This document shows positions 50,454 through 64,000 of a stretch of 64,000 nucleotides of DNA, one piece after another. The first letter of the stretch is position 1. Every line of letters starts with the position of its first letter. Position numbers and translations under genes: made by a program. Below the pieces are notes generated by a model. It did no database searches. It was not told the DNA's origin and saw only the letters and a program-made list of their open reading frames with translations. Source of the DNA: Eubacteriales bacterium (GTDB lineage: Bacteria > Bacillota > Clostridia > Oscillospirales > CAG-272); contig JAZNZC010000153.1 in the NCBI GenBank assembly GCA_045594745.1, forward strand, positions 4,941-68,940. Reading direction: 5' to 3'.

Positions 50454-52121
50454 ATGCTAACGTCACTACATATTGAAAACATAGCTGTCATTCGACGGGC
50501 TGATTTAGACCTTGAAAAGGGGTTCTCGGCTCTGACGGGTGAAACGGGAGCAGGTAAATCGATGATCGTTGATAGCATCAACCTGCTCCTTGGCAATCGA
50601 ACCTCGCGAGAGATCATTCGCTCGGGCGAGACGAGTGCCATGGTCAGTGCTGTTTTTGAGGAACTTTCAGATGTCGCCATCGAGCAAATCCGCGAGATGG
50701 GCTTTGACGTTGAGGATGCCTCTGTGATGCTTTCGCGTACCATCACGATCGACGGTCGCTCACAAACGCGCCTGAACGGTCGCATCATCACACAAGCGAT
50801 ACAAAAAGAGATCGCACGGTTGCTCATCAGTATCCAAGGGCAAGCGGATAGTCAAAATCTCTTGCAAAAGAGCCGTCACCGCGAGCTTCTTGATGCATAC
50901 GGCACTTCAAAAGATGCACTTGCCGACTACCGAACCGCCTTTGAAGAGCTGAAAGCGTGTCGCAAAGAGGTACAGGCACTCTCACAGGATAGTGCCGAAA
51001 AGCTGCGTCTTTCCGAAATGCTCAAATACCAAATTGAAGATATCGACGCTATGAAGCTCAAGGATGGGGAAGAGGAAACGCTCATGCGTGAGCGCGACCG
51101 CCTTGCAAATCTTGAACGCATCAACAAGCAAACAGCCACGATTTGCCGTCTTTTGCGAGACTCCGAAAAGGGAAATGCTTACGATGTTATCCGCCGTGCA
51201 GAAACCTTGTTGCAGTCGTTGAACGGTCTTGTCGATGATACCGACACACTCTCTTCGCGTCTCGCCTTTGCCGCATCCGAAATCGAGGATGTTGCCGAGA
51301 CGGTTCGTTCTTATATGGATGATGATCACGAGGATCCCACCGCGCGCATCGACCGCATTGAAGGTCGCCTTGAGGGAATCGCAAAACTCAAACGCAAATA
51401 CGGCGCCGATGTTGCGGCTGTCCTTGCTTTTCGTGCAGATGCCGCCGCGCGATTGGATGCTTTAGAAACCTCTGACGAGCGTCTGTCTGCTTTGCAAAAG
51501 CAGGTTGAAAAGCTCACTAAAATTGCCGAAAAGCACGCAACCGTTTTGAGACAGAAACGAAAAGAAGCCGCAAAAGAAATTGTTAAGCAAGTTACAGAGT
51601 CGCTCTCTTTCTTGGATATGCCCAAGGTTCGCTTTGAAATTGCTATCAATCCCACCGACCTTTGTGAACACGGCGGCGACGATATTGAATTTTTGATTGC
51701 GACCAACCCCGGCGAGCCGCTAATGCCGCTTTCTAAAATTGCTTCGGGCGGTGAGCTTTCCCGTATTATGCTCGCGCTTCGCTCGGTTCTCAACGATCAC
51801 GACGGCGTTGATACTGTCATTTTTGATGAGATCGATACCGGCGTGTCCGGAAAAACCTCGCGAAAGATCGGCATTAAGCTCAGAGAGACCGCCAAAACGG
51901 GAACACAGGTGCTCTGTGTTACGCACTCCGCGCAGATCGCGTCTCTTGCCGATAATCACTATCGCATTACCAAACACGAGCGCGATGGCAGAGCAGAAAC
52001 CGATGTTCTGCTTCTCGGCGATGACGAACGCGTAGACGAAATTGCGCGTATTCTAGGTAGCATTGAGCCTACCGCCGCACAGCGCAACGCCGCGCGCGAG
52101 ATGATAGAGGAATACAGATAA
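50454..52121 (+). CDS. recN: DNA repair protein RecN
   Basis: SMC-like protein with Walker A GETGAGKS, a coiled-coil middle, the signature SGGELSR and Walker B VIFDEIDTG. Confidence 0.95.
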   Translation: MLTSLHIENIAVIRRADLDLEKGFSALTGETGAGKSMIVDSINLLLGNRTSREIIRSGETSAMVSAVFEELSDVAIEQIREMGFDVEDASVMLSRTITIDGRSQTRLNGRIITQAIQKEIARLLISIQGQADSQNLLQKSRHRELLDAYGTSKDALADYRTAFEELKACRKEVQALSQDSAEKLRLSEMLKYQIEDIDAMKLKDGEEETLMRERDRLANLERINKQTATICRLLRDSEKGNAYDVIRRAETLLQSLNGLVDDTDTLSSRLAFAASEIEDVAETVRSYMDDDHEDPTARIDRIEGRLEGIAKLKRKYGADVAAVLAFRADAAARLDALETSDERLSALQKQVEKLTKIAEKHATVLRQKRKEAAKEIVKQVTESLSFLDMPKVRFEIAINPTDLCEHGGDDIEFLIATNPGEPLMPLSKIASGGELSRIMLALRSVLNDHDGVDTVIFDEIDTGVSGKTSRKIGIKLRETAKTGTQVLCVTHSAQIASLADNHYRITKHERDGRAETDVLLLGDDERVDEIARILGSIEPTAAQRNAAREMIEEYR

Positions 52122-52122
52122 T

Positions 52123-52596
52123 ATGCAAAAAACAAACGCGATGCGGCGCTTGGATGCCGCAAAAATTCCTTATGAGGTGCTCGAATACGAGGTTGACGAA
52201 AATGACCTTTCGGGTATGCACATTGCAGAGCAGCTTGGATTTCCGCCCGAGCAAATGTTCAAAACACTTGTGGCAAAAGGAGATAAAACAGGCCCCTTGG
52301 TCTTTTGTATCCCTGTTGCCGAGGAGATCGATCTGCGCCGCGCCGCAAGTATTACGGGAAACAAACGCATTGAAATGATCCACGTTAAGGATCTTTTGGC
52401 TCTTACAGGTTACATCCGCGGTGGCGTTTCACCCATCGGGATGAAAAAGACTTTTCCCACATACATTCACGAAAGTGCTCTGCAGTTTGAGCGTATCACG
52501 GTCAGCTCCGGTACGCGTGGTGCACAGCTTTTGCTCCCACGAGCCGAACTTTTGCAGTTTTTGTGTGCAAAAACTGCTGATCTTACCGCAAAATAA
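52123..52596 (+). CDS. ybaK: Cys-tRNA(Pro)/Cys-tRNA(Cys) deacylase YbaK
   Basis: 157 aa. ...MFKTLV...GYIRGGVSPIG... is the YbaK/EbsC family. Confidence 0.85.
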   Translation: MQKTNAMRRLDAAKIPYEVLEYEVDENDLSGMHIAEQLGFPPEQMFKTLVAKGDKTGPLVFCIPVAEEIDLRRAASITGNKRIEMIHVKDLLALTGYIRGGVSPIGMKKTFPTYIHESALQFERITVSSGTRGAQLLLPRAELLQFLCAKTADLTAK

Positions 52597-52608
52597 TCAT
52601 ATTTATAC

Positions 52609-52637
52609 TTGAAACCCAACCAATTTTGTTGTATAAT
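52609..52637 (+). promoter_or_regulatory. Putative promoter of argS
   Basis: TTGAAA-17 nt-TATAAT. Confidence 0.55.
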
Positions 52638-52670
52638 ATTACAGTTGACTAAAAATAGAAAGGATTTTCT

Positions 52671-54404
52671 ATGCAAACCATTAAATTACGTATTGCCGAA
52701 AAAATCGCATCTGCAGTTCTCGCAATCAATGCCGAGGCACAACTCAATGCACAAGACGTTGCCGCTATGCTCGAGTATCCGCCCGATAGCAATATGGGCG
52801 ATATTGCATTTCCTTGCTTCCGTTTGAGCAAGGCTCTGCGCCGCTCTCCTGTGCAGATCGCAACTGCTCTTACAGAGCTTTTGAATGACTCCGCAATAGA
52901 TACCGTTGAAGCCGTTAACGGATATCTGAATATTAAAATCAGCAACACCTATCTTGCAGAGAGTGTGCTTCCGGAAATCCTTGTTAAAAAAGAGAATTAC
53001 GGTGCACAAGATTTTGGAAAAGGGAAAACCGTTGTTTTGGATTATTCCTCTCCCAATCTTGCAAAGCCCTTCCATATAGGGCATCTTGGTACTACCGTAA
53101 TCGGCCATTCTATCAAGAAGCTCCACGAGTTTGCAGGCTACCGTTGTGTAGGTATCAACTATATTGGTGACTGGGGTACGCAGTTTGGCAAACTGATTGT
53201 TGCTTATAAGAAGTGGGGCAATAAAGAAGAAGTAGAAAACGGCGGTGTAGATGCGTTGGTAGATTTGTATGTACGCATTAACAATGCTATTTCCGGTAAC
53301 GAGGAAATGGGTATTGTTGCTGATCCCTCGCTTGCAGACGAAGCAAGAGCCGAATTCCACAAAATGGAGATGGGTGACGAAGAAAATCTTGCTCTTTGGC
53401 GCTGGCTCGTAAAACTCTCCATTAAAGCAAACGATAAGATTTATCAACAGCTTGGTATCACCTTTGATAGCTATAAGGGTGAAAGCAGTTACACCGAGGA
53501 TATGCCCGCTCAAATTGAAAAGCTCAGAGAGCAGGGATTGCTCAAAATCGATGACGGAGCATCTTTGGTTGATTTGAGCGAATACGGAATGCCGCCGTGC
53601 TTGATTTTGAAGCGCGATGGTTCTTCTTTGTATCCTACCCGTGATATCGCCGCTGCTTATGATAGAAAGCAATTATACGATTTTGATAAATGCATTTACG
53701 TTACGAGCACCCAACAAATTCTTCACTTTAAGCAGTGGTATAAGGTTGTTGAATTGATGGGCTATGATTGGTATGATAAACTCGTTCACGTTCCTTATGG
53801 TACTGTATCCATTAACGGAGCTAAATTGGCTACCAGAACAGGCAACGTTGTTCTTCTGAAAGACCTTTTTGAAGCGGCAGTTGAAAAAGTAAAAGGTATT
53901 ATGGAAGAAAAGAACCCCAATCTTGAAAATAAAGAAGAAGTGGCCGAAGCCATTGGCGTTGGTGCTATCGTCTTCTATTATCTTACCAATAATCGTATTA
54001 AGGACATCAACTTCAGCCTTGAGGAAGCGCTCAGTTTTGAAGGCAACACAGGTCCTTACGTGCAATATACCTACGCACGCGCTTGCTCGGTATTGAATCG
54101 TGCGGGTGAGGTCGCAGATGTTCCTGTTCAAATTACGACCGAAGAAGAAGCCGCACTCGTTAAAACGCTGTGCCGCTTTGGTGAGAGAGTTTGCTCGGCG
54201 ATCGCCGATTATGAACCCAGCTACATTACACGCTTCATTCTCGACGTTGCCGCGGAATTCACCCGCTTCTATCACAACTGCACCATTCTCGGTGCTGACG
54301 ATCCTGCCATGCGCGCTTCTCGCGTAAAGTTGACCGAGGCTACCAAGATCGTTCTCGGCAACGCCTTTGATCTGATCTGTTTGAAAAAGACAGAAAAGGT
54401 CTGA
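52671..54404 (+). CDS. argS: Arginine--tRNA ligase
   Basis: The class I HIGH region reads SSPNLAKPFHIGHL. Also has an Arg_tRNA_synt_N domain and a DALR anticodon-binding C-terminus. 577 aa. Confidence 0.95.
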   Translation: MQTIKLRIAEKIASAVLAINAEAQLNAQDVAAMLEYPPDSNMGDIAFPCFRLSKALRRSPVQIATALTELLNDSAIDTVEAVNGYLNIKISNTYLAESVLPEILVKKENYGAQDFGKGKTVVLDYSSPNLAKPFHIGHLGTTVIGHSIKKLHEFAGYRCVGINYIGDWGTQFGKLIVAYKKWGNKEEVENGGVDALVDLYVRINNAISGNEEMGIVADPSLADEARAEFHKMEMGDEENLALWRWLVKLSIKANDKIYQQLGITFDSYKGESSYTEDMPAQIEKLREQGLLKIDDGASLVDLSEYGMPPCLILKRDGSSLYPTRDIAAAYDRKQLYDFDKCIYVTSTQQILHFKQWYKVVELMGYDWYDKLVHVPYGTVSINGAKLATRTGNVVLLKDLFEAAVEKVKGIMEEKNPNLENKEEVAEAIGVGAIVFYYLTNNRIKDINFSLEEALSFEGNTGPYVQYTYARACSVLNRAGEVADVPVQITTEEEAALVKTLCRFGERVCSAIADYEPSYITRFILDVAAEFTRFYHNCTILGADDPAMRASRVKLTEATKIVLGNAFDLICLKKTEKV

Positions 54405-54453
54405 TCACTTTGTTTTCAATAATTATTTCTATATATCGAAAGGATGAATCATT

Positions 54454-55185
54454 ATGTCCGGACATAGCAAATGGGCGAATATCAAGCACAAAAAAGAAAA
54501 GACCGATGCCGCAAGAGGTAAGATCTTTACCAAGATCGGCAAAGAGATCACCATCGCAGTCAAAGAGGGAGGCGGTGAGCCTGCTTCCAACTCCAAGCTG
54601 CGCGACCTGATCCAAAAGGCAAAAGCAAACAACGTTCCCAACGATAACATTGAGCGTTGCATCAAAAAGGCGCTCGGCGGCGGCGGTGAGAACTATGAGG
54701 AGGTATCCTACGAGGGTTACGGTCCCGCAGGTGTTGCTGTTATCGTTACTGCTACTACCGATAACCGCAACCGCACCGCAGGCAACGTACGCGCTTACTT
54801 CTCCAAATACCACGGCAACATGGGGCAGACCGGTTGCGTAGGCTATCTGTTCACAGATGTTGGTGAGATCGTTAACAACAACGAGGATGGCGACGTTGAC
54901 GAGGATAAATTGATGGAGCAAGCACTTGAGGCAGGTGCGGCAGACTTCAAAGCAGAGGGAGATGTTTTTATCATCACCACCGAGCCCGACGATGTTTATA
55001 ACATTCAAGAAGACCTCAAAGCCGCAGGATATGAGATTCTCTCGGCAGAAAAAACCAAGCAGGCATCCACCTCTGTTACGCTTGAGAGCGAAGATGACAT
55101 CAAGTTTATGAATCTTCTCATCGATAAGCTTGAAGAAGATGATGACGTTATGGATGTTTATCACAACTGGGAAAACTGCGATTGA
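54454..55185 (+). CDS. yebC: YebC/PmpR-family DNA-binding transcriptional regulator
   Basis: MSGHSKWANIKHKKEKTDAARGKIFTK... is the diagnostic N-terminus. Confidence 0.93.
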   Translation: MSGHSKWANIKHKKEKTDAARGKIFTKIGKEITIAVKEGGGEPASNSKLRDLIQKAKANNVPNDNIERCIKKALGGGGENYEEVSYEGYGPAGVAVIVTATTDNRNRTAGNVRAYFSKYHGNMGQTGCVGYLFTDVGEIVNNNEDGDVDEDKLMEQALEAGAADFKAEGDVFIITTEPDDVYNIQEDLKAAGYEILSAEKTKQASTSVTLESEDDIKFMNLLIDKLEEDDDVMDVYHNWENCD

Positions 55186-55213
55186 TTTTTTTGAAAAAAG
55201 TTTCAAAAAACTA

Positions 55214-55242
55214 TTGACAAACACTTCTTTGTGTGGTATACT
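55214..55242 (+). promoter_or_regulatory. Promoter of T-box unit 1
   Basis: TTGACA-17 nt-TATACT. Confidence 0.6.
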
Positions 55243-55249
55243 ACACGTA

Positions 55250-55520
55250 ATTTAGTAAAGGCTATGACGAAGAAGGTCGAGTAAGGGAGTCCACAGAGAG
55301 TCGGATAAGGTGTGAACCGATGACAAAATTACTCAAGACCCATCACTTCCGAGCCGGATGTTCGAAAGATATTTTATTAAGTAGAATTTCCCGTGATTGC
55401 TGCGTCAAGGCATAGGAATTGTTTGATTCCAAGAGTGGCGACTGTGTCGCAATTTGAGTGGTACCGCGAGTGTATTTTCACACCCGTCTCAAAGTTTGAG
55501 ACGGGTGTTTTATATTTTTG
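55250..55520 (+). promoter_or_regulatory. T-box riboswitch leader 1 (putative Ile, AUC specifier)
   Basis: Stem I has a GA/K-turn (AUGAC...CGA), an AGAGAG bulge and a GGUGUGA distal loop. The specifier-loop 3' side reads CAUCA directly before the CUUC helix. The T-box sequence AATTTGAGTGGTACCGCG is at 55451-55468. The terminator CACCCGTCTC-aaagtt-GAGACGGGTG plus T-run is at 55481-55511. Confidence 0.85.
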
Positions 55521-55538
55521 TAAAAGGAGGAAACCAAA

Positions 55539-57806
55539 ATGTCTACTTCATCATCCAACACTTTGCAGGAGGTCGCTCTGCGAATTCGCGAAATGCGCGA
55601 GATCTTTGATTTCAGTGTTGAAACGATGGCAGAAAAGACCGAAGTATCGGTAGAGGAATATTGCAGATATGAAAGCGGAGAGTTGGATTTTCCGTTCACC
55701 TTCATTCACAAATGTGCTCTTGCTTTTGGAATTGGTATGACCGATTTGCTCGAAGGTCGCAGCGCACATCTTTCGTCTTACACGGTCACCCGACGTGGGC
55801 AAGGACAACAGACCGCAAAGGAGGAAGGCATTGAGATTTCTAACCTTGCTCCTATGTTCCGCAAAAAGCTGGCTGAGCCTTATTGGGTTCACTACGAATA
55901 TAATCCCGATCTGCAAAATCGTCCTATTCACCTCACAAAGCACTCAGGTCAAGAGTTCGATATGGTGCTCAAGGGCAAGCTCAAGGTACAGATCGGTGAG
56001 AATGTCGAATACCTTAGTGAGGGCGATAGCATCTATTACAACAGCTCCACACCCCACGGTATGATCGCGATTGACGGTGAGGATTGTCTCTTTGTTGCAG
56101 TTGTTATGTCCGGTGAGGATGAGAAAGAGGATGTTATCAGAGACACACTCATTCCTATGTGTGCACCGCAAAAAGAACTTGTATGCGATCACTTTATTTC
56201 CACGGTCGAGGACGAAAACGGACTTTTGCAATCCATCGACTTCCACAACGACGATCAATTCAACTTTGGATTTGACGTTGTTGATGCTATCGCGCAAAAG
56301 GATCCCGAAAAGCTTGCGATGATCCATATTGCAAACGATAAGACCGAGCGTCGCTTTACCTTTAATGATATGAAGCGCAAATCAGCGCAATGTGCCAACT
56401 ATTTCAAATCCTTAGGCATCAAAAAAGGTGACCGTGTTATGCTTGTTCTCAAGCGTCACTATCAATTCTGGTTTGCTATTATTGGTCTGCATAAGCTTGG
56501 TGCGATCGTCATTCCCGCAACCAATCAGCTGCAGGCACACGATTTTGAATATCGCTTTGAAGCAGCAGATATCAGTGCGATCATTTGTACAGCGGATGGT
56601 GATGTGGCGCATCAAGTCGATCTTGCACAAGAGAAGTGCCCAATGCTGAAAACAAAGGTGCTTGTCGGCGGCAAGCGCGAAGGATGGAAGGATTTTGACG
56701 AGGAATTTGAACTCTTTAGCGCACATTTCTATCGCACCGAAGAGACTCCTTGCGGCGACGATCTGATGCTGATGTTCTTCACATCCGGCACCACAGGATA
56801 TCCCAAGATCGCGGCGCACACCTATAAATATCCTCTTGGTCACTTTGTTACCGCAAAGCACTGGCACGGTGTTAGTGACGGCAGCCTGCACTTTACCATT
56901 TCCGAAACGGGATGGGGAAAGGCTCTGTGGGGCAAGCTCTACGGTCAATGGCTGTGTGAGGGTGCAGTCTTTACCTACGATTTCGACCGCTTTGATGCGT
57001 CGGAGATCCTTCCGATGTTTGCAAAATACAACATTACAACCTTCTGTGCACCTCCCACGATGCTCCGCATGATGATCAAGCAGGATATCTCCAAATACGA
57101 TCTTTCTTCCATCAAGCATATGACAACCGCAGGTGAGGCACTCAATCCCGAGGTTTACCGTCAGTTTGAAAAGGCTACGGGACTTCAGATCATGGAAGGC
57201 TTTGGTCAGACCGAATTGACGCTTACCATTGCTAACCTGATCGGCGGCACGCACAAGCTCGGCTCTATGGGTAAGCCCATTCCGCTTTACGATGTTGACA
57301 TCGTCGATCCCGACGGCAATCCTGTGGCAGATGGCGAGACGGGAGAGATCATCGTTCGCACCGATAAGAAAGTACCTTGCGGACTCTTTGCAGGCTACTA
57401 TCGAAACGAAGAAAAGCCCGCCGAGGTTTGGCACGACGGTATGTACCACACAGGAGATACTGCGTGGAGAGATGAGGACGGCTTCTATTGGTACGTTGGT
57501 CGCGTAGATGACGTTATCAAGTCCTCGGGCTATCGCATTGGTCCCTTTGAAATCGAAAGCGTTATTATGGAGCTGCCTTACGTCCTTGAATGTGGCGTTT
57601 CTGCCGCTCCCGATGAGGTCAGTGGTCAGGTCGTTAAGGCATCTATCGTCCTTACAAAGGGAACTGAACCTACTGAGGAACTCAAAAAAGAAATTCAAAA
57701 CTACGTTAAGGAGCATACGGCACCTTACAAATATCCGCGTATCGTTGTTTTCCGCGATGAGCTTCCCAAAACCATCAGCGGAAAGATCCAGCGCAACAAG
57801 CTTTGA
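55539..57806 (+). CDS. Fusion protein: XRE-type HTH + cupin + AMP-forming acyl-CoA synthetase (copy 1)
   Basis: N-terminal HTH (SVETMAEKTEVSVEEYCRYESGE), cupin (GQEFDMVLKGKL...GDSIYYNSSTPHGM), then an ANL-family enzyme (MFFTSGTTGYPK, YHTGD, SSGYRIGPFEIES, PKTISGKIQRNKL). 755 aa. AAAGGAGG SD. Confidence 0.85.
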   Translation: MSTSSSNTLQEVALRIREMREIFDFSVETMAEKTEVSVEEYCRYESGELDFPFTFIHKCALAFGIGMTDLLEGRSAHLSSYTVTRRGQGQQTAKEEGIEISNLAPMFRKKLAEPYWVHYEYNPDLQNRPIHLTKHSGQEFDMVLKGKLKVQIGENVEYLSEGDSIYYNSSTPHGMIAIDGEDCLFVAVVMSGEDEKEDVIRDTLIPMCAPQKELVCDHFISTVEDENGLLQSIDFHNDDQFNFGFDVVDAIAQKDPEKLAMIHIANDKTERRFTFNDMKRKSAQCANYFKSLGIKKGDRVMLVLKRHYQFWFAIIGLHKLGAIVIPATNQLQAHDFEYRFEAADISAIICTADGDVAHQVDLAQEKCPMLKTKVLVGGKREGWKDFDEEFELFSAHFYRTEETPCGDDLMLMFFTSGTTGYPKIAAHTYKYPLGHFVTAKHWHGVSDGSLHFTISETGWGKALWGKLYGQWLCEGAVFTYDFDRFDASEILPMFAKYNITTFCAPPTMLRMMIKQDISKYDLSSIKHMTTAGEALNPEVYRQFEKATGLQIMEGFGQTELTLTIANLIGGTHKLGSMGKPIPLYDVDIVDPDGNPVADGETGEIIVRTDKKVPCGLFAGYYRNEEKPAEVWHDGMYHTGDTAWRDEDGFYWYVGRVDDVIKSSGYRIGPFEIESVIMELPYVLECGVSAAPDEVSGQVVKASIVLTKGTEPTEELKKEIQNYVKEHTAPYKYPRIVVFRDELPKTISGKIQRNKL

Positions 57807-57849
57807 TAAAACATTCTTATAATAAATGTTGGAAAAATTATAAAAGCTC

Positions 57850-57878
57850 TTGACAAATAACCAAAAGTGTGATACAAT
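57850..57878 (+). promoter_or_regulatory. Promoter of T-box unit 2
   Basis: TTGACA-17 nt-(TGA)TACAAT. Confidence 0.6.
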
Positions 57879-57884
57879 CTTAAT

Positions 57885-58165
57885 AATTTAGAAAGGCACT
57901 GACGAAGAGGGTGCCGACAAAGCGGTCTTTGCAGAGAAATGGCGGACGGTGCGAGCCATAGACCTCGGTCGGTATTTGTAGCTTCCGAGCCGAAGGGAAG
58001 AACGAGCGAAAGCTCCATTAGACCCCTTCCGTGATTGCTGCGTCAACGCATAGGAGCTGTCAGGCTCCAAGAGTGGCGACTATGTCGCAATTTGAGTGGT
58101 ACCGCGGGTGTTATTGCACTCGTCTCAAGGTTATTTTCACTTTGGGACGAGTGCATTTCTTGTTC
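57885..58165 (+). promoter_or_regulatory. T-box riboswitch leader 2 (putative Val, GUA specifier)
   Basis: Same architecture as leader 1, with compensatory changes in stem III. The specifier-loop 3' side reads UUUGUAG before CUUC. The T-box AATTTGAGTGGTACCGCG is at 58089-58106. The terminator GCACTCGTC...GACGAGTGC is at 58116-58154, followed by a T-rich tract. Confidence 0.85.
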
Positions 58166-58191
58166 CCGAGTAAGAAACGGAGAGAGAAAGA

Positions 58192-60480
58192 ATGAAACAA
58201 ATGAGCGGATTGGATTTCAAGATCCAGGAAATGGCCGAGCGTATTCGTGAGTTGCGTGAGATCACGCGATATACTCCCGAGGAGATGGCGGCAAAGACCG
58301 ACGTAACAACCGAAGAATACCTTGCGTGTGAGAACGGTCAGAGCGACCTTAACTTTGCGTTTATCTACCGTTGTGCACTGGCTTTTGGCGTAAACGTCAC
58401 CGATATTATCGACGGTGTCAGCCCCAAGCTCAAGTCTTACACGGTCACGCGCAACGGCGCGGGACAGCGTATCGAGCAAGCGCACGGAATGACCTACTTC
58501 AATCTGGCGTATGCGTTCCAAAACCGTATTGCAGAGCCTTTGTACGTTCGCAGTGAGTACAACGAAGAAGCACAACACAAGGATATTGAATTGACCACCC
58601 ACGCGGGACAAGAGATCGATATCGTTATTTCGGGTAGTCTGATGGTTCAGGTCGGCTCTCACAAGGAGATCCTGCGTGCAGGTGACAGCATCTACTACGA
58701 TAGTAGCGCGCCTCACGGTATGATCGCCGTTGACGGTCAGGATTGCGAGTTTTATGCAATCGTTCTCAATCCCACGGGCGAACCTATCCCCGAGTTGACT
58801 CCCGCAAAGCTTGTCAAGGGAACAGCTATTCCAACAAAGGATACCAAGGAGCGCATCTATCAAAAGTTCATCGACGTTGTCGAGAACGAAAACGGTACTC
58901 CTACATCCATTCAATTCAAAAATACCGAGAACTTCAATTTTGCATTCGATCTTGTCGATGCACTTGCCGATAAAGAGCCGCAAAAGCTTGCAATGCTCCA
59001 TATTTCGCAAGATAAGACCGAGCGCAGATTTACTTTTAAGGATATCAAAAAAGCATCGGCACAATGTGCTAACTATTTCAAGTCACTTGGCATCAAAAAA
59101 GGCGACCGCGTTATGCTCGTTCTCAAGCGTCATTATCAGTTCTGGTTTGCGATGCTTGGTCTGAATAAGCTCGGTGCCATTGCTATTCCTGCTCCCAATC
59201 AGCTCCAGGAGCACGACTTTGAATATCGCTTCAAGGCAGCAGGGATCAGCACGATCCTTTGTACCTCGGACGGAGATACCGCACATCAAATTGAGCTTGC
59301 TGCTGCGACTTGTCCTGAGCTCAAGAACTTCTTGATCGTAAACGGTAAGCGCAAGGGCTGGAGAAGCTTCGATGAAGAATATCCGCTTTACAGCTCTCAT
59401 TACAACCGTGGCGAGGATGCTCCCGGCGGCAATGATCTGATGCTGATGTTCTTTACATCGGGAACAACGGGATACCCCAAGATAGCGGCGCACAATTATA
59501 AATATGCACTCGGACATTTCCACACCGCAAAATATTGGCACAACGCCGATCCCAACGGATTGCACTTTACTATTTCGGATACGGGCTGGGCAAAGGCAAT
59601 GTGGGGCAAGCTCTACGGCCAATGGCTGTGCGAAGCCGCAACCTTTGTTTACGATTTCGACCGCTTTGATGCATCTGAGATCCTGCCCATGTTTGCAAAA
59701 TACAACATCACGACCTTCTGCGCACCTCCCACGATGCTGCGTATGATGATCAAGCAGGATATCTCCAAATACGATCTTTCCTCGGTCAAGCATATGACAA
59801 CCGCAGGCGAGGCGCTTAACCCCGAGGTTTATCGTCAGTTTGAAAAGGCAACCGGACTCCAAATTCTTGAGGGCTTTGGCCAAACTGAGAGCACAATGAT
59901 CATTGGTAATCTTATAGGTGCTTCGCATAAGATCGGTTCGATGGGTAAGCCCGCACCGATCTACGATGTAGAGCTCGTCGATGTCGACGGAAATCCCGTA
60001 GCAGTTGGTGAAAGTGGTGAGATCGTTGTCAACGTCAAAAACGGAGCACCTTGCGGACTCTTTACCGGTTACTACCGCGACGAAGAAAAGACCGCCGAGG
60101 TTTGGCACGATGGCTACTATCACACCGGCGACGTTGCTTGGCGTGATGAGGACGGCTTCTATTGGTACGTCGGACGCGCTGATGACGTTATCAAATCTTC
60201 GGGTTACCGCATCGGTCCTTTTGAGATCGAAAGCGTTATTATGGAACTGCCTTACGTTCTTGAGTGCGGTGTTTCTGCCGCTCCCGACGAAGTCAGAGGA
60301 CAGATCGTAAAGGCTTCTATCGTTCTTACAAAGGGAACCGAGCCAACCGAAGAACTCAAAAAAGAAATTCAGAATTACGTTAAGGAGCACACAGCTCCCT
60401 ATAAATACCCCAGACTTGTGGTATTCCGTGATGAACTTCCCAAAACCACAAGTGGAAAAATTCAGAGGAACAAATTATGA
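58192..60480 (+). CDS. Fusion protein: XRE-type HTH + cupin + AMP-forming acyl-CoA synthetase (copy 2)
   Basis: 762-aa paralogue of 55539-57806 with the same three-domain order. The C-terminal two thirds are very similar at both protein and DNA level. Confidence 0.85.
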   Translation: MKQMSGLDFKIQEMAERIRELREITRYTPEEMAAKTDVTTEEYLACENGQSDLNFAFIYRCALAFGVNVTDIIDGVSPKLKSYTVTRNGAGQRIEQAHGMTYFNLAYAFQNRIAEPLYVRSEYNEEAQHKDIELTTHAGQEIDIVISGSLMVQVGSHKEILRAGDSIYYDSSAPHGMIAVDGQDCEFYAIVLNPTGEPIPELTPAKLVKGTAIPTKDTKERIYQKFIDVVENENGTPTSIQFKNTENFNFAFDLVDALADKEPQKLAMLHISQDKTERRFTFKDIKKASAQCANYFKSLGIKKGDRVMLVLKRHYQFWFAMLGLNKLGAIAIPAPNQLQEHDFEYRFKAAGISTILCTSDGDTAHQIELAAATCPELKNFLIVNGKRKGWRSFDEEYPLYSSHYNRGEDAPGGNDLMLMFFTSGTTGYPKIAAHNYKYALGHFHTAKYWHNADPNGLHFTISDTGWAKAMWGKLYGQWLCEAATFVYDFDRFDASEILPMFAKYNITTFCAPPTMLRMMIKQDISKYDLSSVKHMTTAGEALNPEVYRQFEKATGLQILEGFGQTESTMIIGNLIGASHKIGSMGKPAPIYDVELVDVDGNPVAVGESGEIVVNVKNGAPCGLFTGYYRDEEKTAEVWHDGYYHTGDVAWRDEDGFYWYVGRADDVIKSSGYRIGPFEIESVIMELPYVLECGVSAAPDEVRGQIVKASIVLTKGTEPTEELKKEIQNYVKEHTAPYKYPRLVVFRDELPKTTSGKIQRNKL

Positions 60481-61139
60481 TGAACAAACGCGTTTTGTTG
60501 CTGTGCGGACATTACGGTAGCGGCAAAACCAACATCGCCGTCAATCTGGCACAAGCGATCAAGAGGGAATACTCAACGGTGACTCTTGCCGACCTTGACA
60601 TCGTCAATCCTTATTTTCGTTCTAAGGACAGTGCTATTGAACTGGAAGAGGCGGGGATTCGACTCATTTGCTCCAATTATGCAAACAGTAACGTTGATAT
60701 TCCCGCGCTTCCGTCAGATCTCTACGCACTCACCGATGACCGCCGTATGAAAGCCATCATCGATGTGGGCGGCGACGATCGCGGTGCATTGGTTCTTGGC
60801 AGACTTGCTCCCGCAATTCTGTCAGAAAACGATTATGAGATGCTGATGGTGATCAACTGCTACCGACCGCTCACAAGAGATGCCGCATCCACGCTTGAGG
60901 TGATGCGCGAGATCGAGTATGCCGGCGGTATTCGCTTTACGGCATTGGTCAACAACTCCAATCTCGGAGCAGAGACCACCGCAGAGGATGTACTCGCATC
61001 GATGCGCTATGCCGATGAAGTGGCGGCTATGTCCAACCTGCCCGTCGTTATGACAACAGCAGACGAAAGATTGCAGAGTGAATTACAGGATAAGATTCCA
61101 AATCTTTTCCCACTCAAGCTGCAAAAAAAGATACAATAA
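60477..61139 (+). CDS. P-loop NTPase (MinD/ParA/CooC-like, deviant Walker A)
   Basis: LLLCGHYGSGKTNIAVNLA at the N-terminus. ATGA overlap with the upstream ligase gene. 220 aa. Confidence 0.6.
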   Translation: MMNKRVLLLCGHYGSGKTNIAVNLAQAIKREYSTVTLADLDIVNPYFRSKDSAIELEEAGIRLICSNYANSNVDIPALPSDLYALTDDRRMKAIIDVGGDDRGALVLGRLAPAILSENDYEMLMVINCYRPLTRDAASTLEVMREIEYAGGIRFTALVNNSNLGAETTAEDVLASMRYADEVAAMSNLPVVMTTADERLQSELQDKIPNLFPLKLQKKIQ

Positions 61140-61176
61140 TGGTTTACAAATCCTACTAAAAAGGAGTTACATAAAA

Positions 61177-61383
61177 ATGGCAAAATTAACGTTTTTGACC
61201 GATAATTGCAAGGGCTGCGGTCTGTGTGTGGACGCTTGCCCCAAAAAGGTGCTTCGTTTGGCACCCGATAAGATCAACAAAAAAGGACATCACCCCGTAG
61301 AGGCAGAAAACCCCGATGCTTGCATTGGCTGTGCATTCTGCGCTACGATGTGTCCCGATTGCATTATTACTGTTGAGAGGTGA
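61177..61383 (+). CDS. 4Fe-4S ferredoxin-type protein (delta subunit of 2-oxoacid:ferredoxin oxidoreductase)
   Basis: Two CxxCxxCxxxCP motifs (CKGCGLCVDACP, CIGCAFCATMCP). 68 aa from MAKLTF with an AAGGAG SD. Confidence 0.85.
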   Translation: MAKLTFLTDNCKGCGLCVDACPKKVLRLAPDKINKKGHHPVEAENPDACIGCAFCATMCPDCIITVER

Positions 61384-61388
61384 TCAAA

Positions 61389-62456
61389 ATGGCAGATAAA
61401 GTATTGATGAAAGGCAACGAAGCCATTGCCGAGGCCGCAATTCACGCAGGCTGCAGACATTATTTTGGCTATCCCATCACCCCTCAAACCGAGATCGCGG
61501 CTTATATGGCAAAAAAGATGCCCAAGATCGGCGGCACTTTTCTGCAAGCTGAAAGTGAGATCGCGGCGATCAATATGGTCTACGGTGTGGCATCCGCAGG
61601 ACACCGCGTTATGACCTCTTCCTCAAGCCCCGGAATCGCACTCAAGAGCGAAGGCCTTTCTTACCTCGCAGGCTCGGATCTGCCGTCTTTGGTCGTTAAC
61701 GTTCAACGCGGTGGTCCCGGACTTGGCGGTATTCAGCCCAGCCAATCTGACTATTTCCAAGCAACCAAGGCAGGCGGTCACGGCGACTTCCGTATGATCG
61801 TTCTCGCTCCCGCATCCGTTCAGGAGATGGCAGAGCTCACCGTCAAGGGCTTTGAACTTGCCGATACATACCGCATGACCGCTATGATCCTTGCCGACGG
61901 TACGATGGGGCAGATGATGGAGCCTGTGGCACTTGACGACCTTGTTGTCAAGCCTGCACCTGCAAAGCCTTGGGCGACTACCGGCACCAAGATGCAACGC
62001 GCTCACAATATTACTAATTCGCTCTCTCTCGTTCCCGAAGAGCTCGAAAAGCTGAATTTCGCTCGCTATGAGCGTTACCGCACCATTGAGGAAAACGAGG
62101 TCATGTACGAGGAATATATGATGGACGATGCAGAGATCTGTATTGCCGCTTTCGGTATTGCCGCACGTGTTTCCAAAAACGCGATCAATGAGGCGAGAAA
62201 AGCGGGCATTAAGGTTGGTATGATCCGTCCCATCACGCTCTGGCCCTTCCCGAAGGAAGTATTCCGTCGCGCCGCAGATAAGGTCAACAGCTTTATTTCT
62301 GTTGAGCTTTCTATGGGGCAGATGATCGAGGACGTTCGCCTTGCAACCGAATGCAAAAAGCCTGTAATGCTTTGCAATCGTGCAGGCGGTATGATCCCGT
62401 CTCCCGATCAAGTACTCGAAGCAATTAAGAACGCCGCGAAAGGAGGAGAGAACTAA
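61389..62456 (+). CDS. vorB: 2-oxoacid:ferredoxin oxidoreductase alpha subunit (VorB-like, 3-methyl-2-oxobutanoate type)
   Basis: MADKVLMKGNEAIAEAAIHAGCRHYFGYPITPQTEI is the typical N-terminus of the VOR/KOR alpha subunit. Substrate assignment comes from context only. Confidence 0.8.
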   Translation: MADKVLMKGNEAIAEAAIHAGCRHYFGYPITPQTEIAAYMAKKMPKIGGTFLQAESEIAAINMVYGVASAGHRVMTSSSSPGIALKSEGLSYLAGSDLPSLVVNVQRGGPGLGGIQPSQSDYFQATKAGGHGDFRMIVLAPASVQEMAELTVKGFELADTYRMTAMILADGTMGQMMEPVALDDLVVKPAPAKPWATTGTKMQRAHNITNSLSLVPEELEKLNFARYERYRTIEENEVMYEEYMMDDAEICIAAFGIAARVSKNAINEARKAGIKVGMIRPITLWPFPKEVFRRAADKVNSFISVELSMGQMIEDVRLATECKKPVMLCNRAGGMIPSPDQVLEAIKNAAKGGEN

Positions 62457-63214
62457 TGGTTGTATTTAAGAAACCCCACGCTCTGACCGATGCACCCTTC
62501 CATTATTGCCCCGGTTGCACCCACGGTATCATTCACCGTTTGGTAGCCGAGGTCATTGACGAGCTCGGCATTGAGGGCAGAACCATCGGTATTGCTCCCG
62601 TTGGTTGCTCGGTTATGGCTTATAACTACTTTAACTGTGATATGATCGAGGCCGCACACGGTCGCGCACCTGCTGTTGCTACCGGTGTTAAGCGCGCCAA
62701 CCCCGAGGAACATATCGTTTTCACCTACCAAGGCGACGGTGACCTCGCATCTATCGGCATGGCAGAAACCGTTCACGCCGCCGCAAGAAACGAAAATATC
62801 ACCATTATCTTTATTAACAATGCAATTTACGGTATGACCGGCGGTCAGATGGCGCCCACATCGCTTCCCGGACAGGTTACACAGACCTCTCCTTACGGTC
62901 GCGACACCAACCACTGCGGGTTCCCGATTCGTGTATGCGAAATGCTCTCCGAGCTTGAGGGCCCCGAATATCTCGCCCGTGTTACCGTTAATAACGTAAA
63001 GAATGTAAATAACGCTAAAAAAGCGATCAAAAAGGCATTCCAAAATCAGATCGATGGCAAAGGCTTCTCTTTGGTCGAAGTACTTTCCACCTGTCCTACC
63101 AACTGGGGTATGACTCCTCAGAAGGCTCTGCAATGGATCGATGAGAAAATGATCCCTTATTATCCGCTTGGCGTTTATAAGGATAGAAGTGGGGAGGAGG
63201 AATCGGCAAAATGA
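62456..63214 (+). CDS. 2-oxoacid:ferredoxin oxidoreductase beta subunit (TPP-binding)
   Basis: HYCPGCTHG..., GDGD... and IFINNAIYGMTGGQ TPP-binding motifs. Start/stop overlaps the alpha subunit gene. Confidence 0.88.
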   Translation: MVVFKKPHALTDAPFHYCPGCTHGIIHRLVAEVIDELGIEGRTIGIAPVGCSVMAYNYFNCDMIEAAHGRAPAVATGVKRANPEEHIVFTYQGDGDLASIGMAETVHAAARNENITIIFINNAIYGMTGGQMAPTSLPGQVTQTSPYGRDTNHCGFPIRVCEMLSELEGPEYLARVTVNNVKNVNNAKKAIKKAFQNQIDGKGFSLVEVLSTCPTNWGMTPQKALQWIDEKMIPYYPLGVYKDRSGEEESAK

Positions 63215-63744
63215 GTACAAAGCAAATGCTGTTTTCCGGCTTTGGCGGACAGGGAATTCTGTTTGCCGGTAAATTTATCGCTTACAAAGGACTGATGGAG
63301 GAAAAGCAAGTCAGTTGGCTTCCGTCCTACGGTCCCGAAATGCGCGGTGGTACTGCAAGTTGTAGCGTCATCGTCAGCGACGAGCCTGTTGGCTCCCCCA
63401 TTGTATCCAACCCCGATATCCTGATCGCTATGAACCTGCCGTCTCTTGATAAATTCGAGTCGACTGTTGTTCCCGGCGGAATGATTTTTGCTGACTCCAC
63501 TCTTATCGAGCGCAAGGTTGAACGCGATGATGTTAAGGTGTTCTACATTCCCGCGACACAACTCGCAAGCGACAATGGCACGCCCACACTCGCAAACATG
63601 ATCATCGTTGGTAAGGTGCTCAAGGAAATTGGCGACTACAACGAAGAAAACATCACCGCTGCACTTAAAAAAGTTATTTCTGCAAAGCGCGCGGATATGC
63701 TTGATATCAACCTTGGCGCTATGCGTCTTGGTGCCCAAAACTAA
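63211..63744 (+). CDS. 2-oxoacid:ferredoxin oxidoreductase gamma subunit
   Basis: [14 protein letters not shown]...YGPEMRGG is the gamma (POR/KOR) subunit family. 4-nt overlap with the beta subunit gene. Confidence 0.88.
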
Positions 63745-63769
63745 TTCAAAATACAGAAAGGGTAGTACT

Positions 63770-64000
63770 ATGTTGAATATTTCCATTACAAAATGTGATG
63801 CTCCCAAGGCAAAGCCGGATGCTTCTACCCTGGGCTTTGGTAAAATTTTTACCGACCATATGTTCATTGTTGACTATTCTCACGAAAAGGGTTGGTACAA
63901 TGCGCGCATCGTTCCGTTTGCAAACATTTCTCTCCATCCCGCATCCACCGTTCTGCATTACGGCTCTGAGATTTTCGAGGGTCTGAAGGCTTATCGCCGC
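63770..64000 (+). CDS. ilvE: Branched-chain amino acid aminotransferase (N-terminal part; continues beyond the window)
   Basis: Not in the ORF track because it has no stop in the window. Manual translation gives MLNISITKCDAPKAKPDASTLGFGKIFTDHMFIVDY...HYGSEIFEGLKAYR, a class IV BCAT signature. Confidence 0.85.
   Translation, partial: MLNISITKCDAPKAKPDASTLGFGKIFTDHMFIVDYSHEKGWYNARIVPFANISLHPASTVLHYGSEIFEGLKAYRR

Follow-up and report, generated by a model that had tools for sequence, protein, structure and literature searches.

A T-box-controlled array of HTH-cupin-fused acyl-CoA ligases, a 2-oxoacid:ferredoxin oxidoreductase and ilvE in an Oscillospirales bacterium: a predicted route from branched short-chain fatty acids to isoleucine and valine

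T-box leaders switch genes on when their cognate tRNA is uncharged, the Leu T-box of the Bacillus subtilis ilv-leu operon being one example, and AMP-forming acyl-CoA ligases run toward the thioester. That fibre-degrading bacteria of the rumen require or profit from isoacids, which are fed to cattle commercially, has been known since the 1960s. Later accounts of the work of Robinson and Allison (1969) describe, for rumen anaerobes, the reductive carboxylation of 2-methylbutyrate to isoleucine and of isobutyrate to valine (PMC2812497; PMC7356843), and reductive carboxylation of 2-methylbutyrate for isoleucine has been proposed for M. ruminantium (PMC2812497). A 2020 paper on a rumen bacterium describes the step from branched short-chain fatty acids to branched-chain amino acids as "not proven yet" at the enzyme level (PMC7709123). 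Here we analyze a 64-kb window of DNA from an uncultured member of the Oscillospirales, in which positions 55214–64000 form one + strand gene array that joins two T-box leaders to two acyl-CoA ligases, a P-loop NTPase, a four-subunit 2-oxoacid:ferredoxin oxidoreductase (OFOR) of the VOR type, and the branched-chain aminotransferase (BCAT) gene ilvE. We put at roughly three in four the probability that this operon assimilates exogenous branched short-chain fatty acids into isoleucine and valine and is induced by the matching uncharged tRNAs. The induction logic of T-boxes, taken together with the chemistry of AMP-forming ligases, argues for the assimilatory direction.

A preliminary description of this DNA had listed the elements as T-box, ligase, T-box, ligase, P-loop protein, four OFOR subunits, and ilvE, and every one of them is present on the + strand in that order. 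It had not mentioned that each T-box has its own σA-type promoter. The features are as follows.

55214..55242, +, promoter P1: TTGACA, 17 nt, TATACT, with a TG extended −10; 11 of 12 consensus matches
55255..55518, +, T-box leader 1, Ile-specific: Rfam RF00230 match at 55255–55494; specifier AUC at 55342–55344; T-box sequence at 55451–55468; terminator at 55480–55508, then a U-tract
55539..57806, +, ligase 1, 755 aa: helix-turn-helix (HTH, residues ~8–78), cupin (~79–195), and AMP-forming acyl-CoA synthetase (~241–755)
57850..57878, +, promoter P2: TTGACA, 17 nt, TACAAT, with TG
57890..58165, +, T-box leader 2, Val-specific: Rfam match at 57890–58130; specifier GUA at 57978–57980; T-box sequence at 58089–58106; terminator at 58115–58155, with a weaker U-tract
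58192..60480, +, ligase 2, 762 aa: HTH, cupin, and AMP-forming acyl-CoA synthetase
60477..61139, +, P-loop NTPase, 220 aa, assigned to an unnamed SIMIBI-class family from its Walker A motif and predicted fold
61177..61383, +, OFOR delta, 68 aa, 2×[4Fe-4S] ferredoxin-like: Fer4 families; ribosome-binding site upstream
61389..62456, +, OFOR alpha, 355 aa, VorB-type: POR_N and PFOR_II
62456..63214, +, OFOR beta, 252 aa, thiamine pyrophosphate (TPP)-binding: TPP_enzyme_C, 1.9e-22
63211..63744, +, OFOR gamma, 177 aa: Pfam POR, 4.4e-34
63770..64000, +, ilvE, type II BCAT: N-terminal 76 codons only, continuing past the window end

The genes are tightly packed. The start codon of the P-loop gene overlaps the stop codon of ligase 2 (ATGA), alpha and beta overlap by 1 nt, and beta and gamma by 4 nt. 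No terminator was found between the ligase-1 stop codon and P2. For comparison we fetched 80 related loci from uncultured Oscillospirales, with ligases 70–96% identical and flanks of ~10 kb per side; the counts given below for the full unit refer to the 48 loci long enough to judge. The arrangement is far beyond chance, because it recurs in dozens of species and its leader structure covaries.

Both leaders match the Rfam T-box model RF00230 over its full length, leader 1 with 86.1 bits (E = 1.6e-18, model positions 1–219 of 219) and leader 2 with 69.4 bits (E = 3.1e-14). Both values lie below the gathering score of that model, 93 bits, and the two elements were recovered with E-value thresholds; a default gathering scan of the entire 64-kb window reports no RNA element. 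Routine annotation overlooks both T-boxes because they score just under this cut-off. Orthologous leaders in the related loci exceed it (96–105 bits). In both window leaders the model alignment places a Stem I K-turn and the AGAGA and GGUG motifs, the box AAUUUGAGUGGUACCGCG is conserved (55451–55468; 58089–58106), and the 3′ arm of the antiterminator doubles as the 5′ arm of the terminator. The terminator stems comprise 13 bp in leader 1 (fold z = −4.1) and 17 bp in leader 2 (z = −5.7). Across 126 distinct orthologous leaders, compensatory double substitutions are seen at 33 of the 50 consensus pairs, canonical pairs fill 95% of cells, and the GAAG/CUUC basal helix and the Stem I pairs are among those that covary. 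The earlier proposal of a T-box upstream of each ligase is thus borne out by full-length model matches, canonical motifs, and covariation.

The preliminary description left the amino acids unnamed. The Rfam model alignment puts AUC, followed by A, at the specifier position of leader 1 (Ile) and GUA, followed by G, at that of leader 2 (Val). Both codons lie directly 5′ of the basal CUUC helix, a geometry that we take to be the same as that of the glyQS Stem I. To follow the codons through the related loci, orthologous T-boxes were located by an nhmmer profile and their specifiers parsed by rule. AUC was found in 64 of 70 ligase-1 leaders and a Val codon in 51 of 57 ligase-2 leaders (46 GUA and 5 GUC); the leaders outside these counts are parser failures that show the same codons by eye. 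The assignment follows the ligase phylogeny, with 64 AUC and 0 Val codons in the ligase-1 clade and 39 GUA, 4 GUC, and 0 Ile codons in the ligase-2 clade, and the pairing of Ile with ligase 1 and of Val with ligase 2 is kept across ~120 orthologous leaders. The synonymous switching between GUA and GUC in the Val leaders is what would be expected under selection on amino-acid identity.

Compared with known RF00230 leaders, the two window copies have all the canonical elements and the arrangement of transcription-termination control. A purine follows the specifier in both, whereas C often follows AUC in orthologues, and the UGGU bulge would match an A73 discriminator. Unlike known T-boxes, which control synthetases, transporters, or the acetolactate pathway, they precede acid-activating ligases and an OFOR, and two amino-acid-specific switches (three in relatives) stand in series within one locus.

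These leaders also bear on a catabolic alternative, in which IlvE and an oxidative VOR would degrade isoleucine and valine to acyl-CoAs and then to branched acids. VOR is reversible and runs oxidatively in many peptide fermenters, such as Pyrococcus (PMC3942289), but T-boxes turn genes on when an amino acid is scarce. AMP-forming ligases, moreover, conserve no energy toward acid release, for which fermenters use ADP-forming ACS or Ptb/Buk (PMC3942289), and the cluster contains genes for neither. We regard fermentation of branched-chain amino acids as a most improbable function of the operon.

What the preliminary description called ligases do carry AMP-forming ligase domains, although they are not plain ligases but proteins of three modules, HTH, cupin, and ligase. 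AMP-binding and AMP-binding_C are found in both with Pfam E-values of 1e-62 to 1e-66 (2.6e-66 for AMP-binding in ligase 1); AMP-binding scores 224.5 and 209.5 bits against a cut-off of 29.9, AMP-binding_C 75 and 76 bits against 24.5, and both proteins have the C-terminal catalytic Lys motif PKTISGKIQR. The two are 70% identical, and the ligase tree resolves two reciprocally monophyletic clades of 80 and 55 sequences. Relatives of the ligases are encoded in at least 596 species genomes; an exact-match look-up of ligase 1 returned no record.

The proposed activation of branched acids agrees with the nearest characterized enzymes, MacsMa and MbcS, which act on 2-methylbutyrate, isobutyrate, or both. 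The closest solved structure is that of MacsMa (PDB 3ETC, E = 4.7e-184), with ~52% identity over the ligase domain (51.6% for ligase 1). This Methanosarcina acetivorans enzyme prefers 2-methylbutyrate; it adenylates C3–C8 acids and completes the full reaction with 2-methylbutyrate (PMC10455477). MacsMa is archaeal, has no T-box, and lacks the HTH-cupin module, its match starting at query residue 237. The best NCBIfam model for both ligases is MbcS, NF047394, with 435.5 and 433.9 bits. Staphylococcus aureus MbcS is selective for 2-methylbutyrate and isobutyrate (PMC10026030), the same pair of acids that we predict for the two ligases, but it feeds lipid primers, and neither an HTH-cupin fusion nor T-box regulation appears in its description (PMC10026030).

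The likeness to MbcS raises the possibility that the ligases instead supply 2-methylbutyryl-CoA and isobutyryl-CoA to FabH as primers for branched-chain membrane lipids, with VOR and IlvE balancing the pools or running oxidatively. The demonstrated role of MbcS is indeed the supply of branched-chain fatty acid primers (PMC10026030), rumen bacteria put branched short-chain fatty acids into their membrane lipids (PMC7709123), and the acyl-CoA products could serve both fates. Control by the charging of tRNA-Ile and tRNA-Val, however, is not lipid logic; the specificity for Ile or Val codons follows the ligase clade; and the ligases are coupled, transcriptionally and translationally, to VOR and BCAT genes rather than to fab genes. 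Primer supply as the purpose of the operon is therefore unlikely.

Residues of the acyl pocket were compared by aligning both ligases with MacsMa and Escherichia coli Acs. At the position of Acs W414, MacsMa has Gly, as do ligase 1 (Gly556) and ligase 2 (Gly563). Replacement of Acs Trp414 by Gly, together with an alternative pocket Trp (Trp259 in MacsMa), is the hallmark of Macs enzymes (PMC10455477), and both ligases also keep the alternative Trp, aligned in the motif AK(H/Y)W, and so are of the Macs type. In the column of Acs V310, MacsMa has G278, ligase 1 G460, and ligase 2 A467; Gly is common to the Ile-gated clade and MacsMa, Ala is found in the Val-gated clade, and ligase 2 differs from MacsMa at this pocket position. 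Ten residues discriminate the clades, each being conserved to at least 85% within either clade yet not the same in both; nine of them lie in the N-terminal module and just this one, Gly460 versus Ala467, in the ligase domain. The pair fits a larger pocket for a C5 acid and a smaller one for a C4 acid, since the Val-clade residue is one methyl larger, as suits a substrate one carbon smaller (isobutyrate). We thus predict that ligase 1 is a 2-methylbutyrate–CoA ligase and ligase 2 an isobutyrate–CoA ligase.

The C-terminal halves of the two ligases (56985–57806 and 59650–60480) are 94–98% identical as protein, and 52–70% of their same-residue codons are identical. We considered gene conversion between these halves, which the synonymous-codon identity of only 52–70% rules out; the similarity reflects strong purifying selection, not recent gene conversion.

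A further feature that the preliminary description had not recorded is the N-terminal module itself. Residues 1–200 of both ligases (55539–56140 and 58192–58800) appear to consist of an XRE-type HTH followed by a Cupin_2 domain. Cupin_2 scores 43.0 and 42.9 bits (Pfam cut-off 27.2), and HTH_19 scores 33.8 bits in ligase 2 and 22.1 bits in ligase 1, the latter below the Pfam cut-off of 30.2. HTH-cupin regulators of the PuuR type are stand-alone proteins, and BirA is a fused adenylating enzyme and repressor. When the module alone was searched against 1.84 billion representative proteins, it retrieved fused proteins of ~760 aa and many stand-alone proteins of ~185 aa, at 33–43% identity; a sequence search of the region against the PDB returned nothing. 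The module matches the PuuR-type XRE-HTH and cupin regulators (~185 aa) as a whole, but here it is fused to an acyl-CoA ligase, and it gives the impression of an entire small transcription factor joined to an enzyme. In being an adenylate-forming enzyme with an N-terminal HTH, the fusion resembles BirA.

Identity of the HTH-cupin module is 62–71% within clades and 47–53% between them; for the ligase domain the values are 72–75% within clades (catalytic N-domain) and 67–87% between. The cupin triad His135/Glu139/His173 is at least 97% conserved. The divergence of the module between clades, together with the nine discriminating residues it contains, points to a function specific to each paralogue, and the module is probably a paralogue-specific sensor or regulator. 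An operator search for the HTH found only A/T-tract motifs upstream of the −35 element, which are UP-element-like, and no convincing conserved palindrome. The A/T-tract palindrome TTTTTTTGAAAAAAGTTTCAAAAAA at 55186–55212, which resembles tracts in many orthologous promoters, lies directly upstream of the P1 −35 element and may serve either as an UP element or as an operator of the fused HTH. Equivalents of P1 are found ahead of the Ile T-box in nearly all orthologous loci, and equivalents of P2 are kept ahead of the Val T-box.

Downstream of the ligases, the four-subunit oxidoreductase can be recognized as VOR-type, as first proposed, from the presence of genes for delta, alpha, beta, and gamma and from the alpha subunit, which passes the NCBIfam model NF005507 "VorB" (542.5 bits, cut-off 399; a "subfamily" model that supplies an annotation name). 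Alpha also matches the alpha subunit of a 2-keto acid:ferredoxin oxidoreductase (PDB 1YD7, E = 2e-60), and delta contains two CxxCxxCxxxCP motifs. VOR is here an annotation-level name, and we read the substrates of the enzyme from its context. The VORs of archaea and anaerobes and the anabolic OFORs of methanogens have the same delta/alpha/beta/gamma make-up and the same TPP and [4Fe-4S] motifs, but the window OFOR is bacterial (Oscillospirales), always follows a dedicated P-loop gene, and is co-transcribed with the ligases and the BCAT. The identification of the last gene as a BCAT likewise stands, through the full-length IlvE orthologue in locus L002 (93% identical over the stretch within the window), which passes two BCAT equivalog models (NF009897, 476 against 307; TIGR01123, 402 against 250). 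Identical copies of the P-loop protein (P0003) come from short metagenome contigs only, ending before or within ilvE, and the region downstream of ilvE was read from the relatives L002 and L014.

The make-up of the oxidoreductase leaves room for other substrates. Conversion of propionate to 2-oxobutyrate is a known anaerobic entry to isoleucine via IlvBCD, and the Ile-gated ligase could act on propionate, with the OFOR forming 2-oxobutyrate; another possibility for the OFOR is the synthesis of 2-oxoglutarate or pyruvate. The best matches of beta, gamma, and delta are models of 2-oxoglutarate or 2-oxoacid OFORs, all below cut-off, the substrate range of an OFOR is unreadable from sequence, and MacsMa adenylates acids down to C3 (PMC10455477). 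Against this, alpha passes the VorB model and IlvE is co-transcribed. The smaller residue of the Ile clade (Gly, against Ala in the Val clade) implies the larger substrate for that clade, the opposite of propionate versus isobutyrate, and MacsMa, which shares the Gly, carries out the full reaction with 2-methylbutyrate (PMC10455477). Furthermore, none of ilvI, ilvH, ilvC, ilvD, ilvA, leuB, leuC, and leuD occurs within the window or any of the 80 flanking regions, a search of ~10 kb per side and not of whole genomes, so that no ilvBCD or ilvA is nearby. A role of this kind is very unlikely.

The P-loop protein between the ligases and the OFOR has an invariant Walker A motif, GHYGSGKT, in which an invariant His takes the place of the MinD signature Lys. 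Its matches to MinD, ParA, ArsA, and Mrp are marginal and restricted to Walker A, and it scores 24.5 bits with Pfam CbiA (PF01656), under the cut-off of 25.4. More than 8000 close homologues exist, all of them unnamed or labeled "MinD/ParA family". An alignment-based AlphaFold2 model reaches a pLDDT of 87.5 (a single-sequence model, with a pLDDT of 52, was too poor and was left unused), and Foldseek relates it to SRP GTPases (Ffh/FtsY), ATPase-type HypB (5AUQ), and MipZ, with probability 1.0 and TM values of 0.5–0.6. On the strength of this model, the protein is placed in an unnamed SIMIBI-class family. The gene is present in 53 of 53 loci with delta and adjoins it in 50. Our best guess, by analogy with HypB and CooC, is that the protein is probably a dedicated VOR assembly or maturation factor. 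It has the P-loop fold of the SIMIBI maturation NTPases (ATPase-type HypB, CooC, Mrp/ApbC, and MinD/ParA), and its gene, too, stands beside that of a metalloenzyme it may serve, but identity to them is only 14–21%, and the protein has no conserved Cys and hence no cluster site of the NifH or Mrp kind. A role as a NifH-like, ATP-driven electron donor was considered and is ruled out by the lack of a conserved Cys.

The linkage of these genes is conserved. Ligase(s), P-loop gene, and VOR are kept together in 46 of the 48 loci; 38 are complete (ligase 1, ligase 2, P-loop, VOR, and ilvE), and eight are reduced, with the ligase(s) still linked to the P-loop–VOR genes. In the single-ligase loci L030, L031, L046, L068, and L080, the P-loop–VOR genes follow the ligase directly. 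An Ile T-box precedes the ligase in L031, L046, L068, and L080; none was detected for L030, where only ~920 nt of upstream sequence is available. The hosts are uncultured Oscillospirales-type metagenome-assembled genomes (Acutalibacteraceae, Ruminococcaceae, Oscillospiraceae, and Christensenellaceae) from the rumen, hindgut, and faeces of ruminants, horse, and human, habitats rich in branched acids, CO2, and reductant.

Taken together, the Ile and Val specifiers, the ligase homologies, the VorB and BCAT models, and the conserved cluster support the assimilatory interpretation that the preliminary description had drawn from T-boxes and AMP-forming ligases. We infer tRNA-dependent antitermination, the ligase substrates, the direction and substrates of VOR, and induction on starvation, and propose the following sequence of events. 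Uncharged tRNA-Ile(GAU) would pair with leader 1 at its AUC specifier and UGGU bulge, stabilizing the antiterminator, so that ligase 1 is transcribed. Uncharged tRNA-Val(UAC), acting at leader 2 (GUA), would open ligase 2, the P-loop NTPase, the four-subunit VOR, and IlvE. Ligase 1 would convert 2-methylbutyrate and ligase 2 isobutyrate to the CoA thioester (ATP to AMP and PPi). VOR, acting as a synthase that uses reduced ferredoxin and CO2, would carboxylate the acyl-CoAs to 2-oxo-3-methylvalerate and 2-oxoisovalerate, from which IlvE would form isoleucine and valine, respectively, by transamination. Substrate choice would thus reside in two paralogous ligases, each with its own riboswitch, and the carboxylase and aminotransferase would be shared.

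Several points weigh against this interpretation. Where both ligases are present, VOR and ilvE stand behind the Val switch alone, which the preliminary description had not noted; a shortage of isoleucine by itself should then raise ligase 1 and leave the shared enzymes uninduced, unless leader 2 leaks, as its weak U-tract might allow, or further copies exist elsewhere. The ligases, at 435.5 and 433.9 bits, are far below the MbcS equivalog cut-off of 850 bits and are not members of that family. Only alpha passes a model named for VOR; beta, gamma, and delta are under all specific cut-offs (beta 133 against 364, gamma 106 against 235), with the generic Pfam domains recognized. The Ile-T-box ligase stands alone in 2 of the 48 loci. 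It is we who infer the substrates of the ligases and of VOR and the direction in which VOR runs. Finally, Acs Val310 is reportedly a residue of the acetate pocket (Ingram-Smith et al. 2006), in a numbering that presumably runs V310, T311, and V386. The paper on MacsMa confirms the Trp414 equivalence only (PMC10455477).

A bolder proposal is that the fused HTH-cupin ligases act as trigger enzymes, that the P-loop protein is a dedicated VOR factor, and that these, together with a riboswitch for each ligase, are the missing genetic basis of the rumen observation; we hold this to be possible but doubtful. On this view, the HTH-cupin modules would detect either the acid or the end product and respond by feedback on the enzyme or by DNA binding, and in the P-loop NTPase an anabolic 2-oxoacid:ferredoxin oxidoreductase would have its own assembly or coupling factor, which would be new.

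The relatives also contain a unit adjoining the operon that is absent from the preliminary description, with a third T-box bearing a Leu specifier, CUC or CUG (21 cases; for example, L031:5473–9628, L002:9788–11481, and L014:19496–21166). This T-box precedes a divergent LeuA-like gene of 460 aa that fails all NCBIfam LeuA cut-offs; the gene stands beside the operon in ~35 loci, with no leuBCD adjoining. In loci of the L031 type, next comes the gene for a protein of 825 aa, a fusion of a xylose-isomerase-like TIM barrel with an AMP-binding ligase. The Leu T-box unit may be an isovalerate/leucine arm of the same system. Next to a lone Ile-T-box ligase, a protein is encoded that has a metallo-β-lactamase fold and an ACT domain, a domain that commonly binds amino acids (L058:12278–13717). 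6S RNA and the Gut-1 sRNA occur in the flanks of related loci (L013:8809–8997; L014:298–370). In the window itself, the genes upstream of the array (50454–55185) encode an SMC_N/AAA_23 ATPase, a protein with a YbaK-type tRNA-editing domain, ArgS, and YebC; two of these have a link to tRNA, but none is related to the operon. No tRNA genes occur in the 64-kb window.

T-boxes, Macs-type ligases, VOR, and the physiology of branched acids are already known. In the full-text literature, of which our search had limited coverage, we found no published account of the operon, of riboswitch wiring by amino acid, of an HTH-cupin–ligase fusion, or of a VOR-linked NTPase, and a survey of RNA regulons makes no mention of the operon genes (PMC3766115). 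The locus flags two widespread, uncharacterized protein types, the HTH-cupin–ligase fusion and the VOR-linked SIMIBI NTPase, and illustrates that the Rfam gathering cut-off hides T-box leaders of this sort from routine annotation. Gly versus Ala offers a simple predicted switch of ligase specificity, and the marker genes (the two ligase clades, VOR with its P-loop partner, and IlvE) could predict which gut and rumen bacteria consume branched acids. If our interpretation is correct, the T-box regulon would widen from synthetases, transporters, and classical biosynthesis to acid-scavenging enzymes, and the operon might represent a new regulatory design, in which one tRNA-sensing riboswitch per substrate-specific ligase (Ile, Val, and, in relatives, Leu) precedes a shared carboxylase and aminotransferase. 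It would also provide a gene-level basis for a 60-year-old rumen observation, in the form of a CO2-fixing, ferredoxin-dependent route to amino acids that links the protein fermentation of one guild to the anabolism of another.

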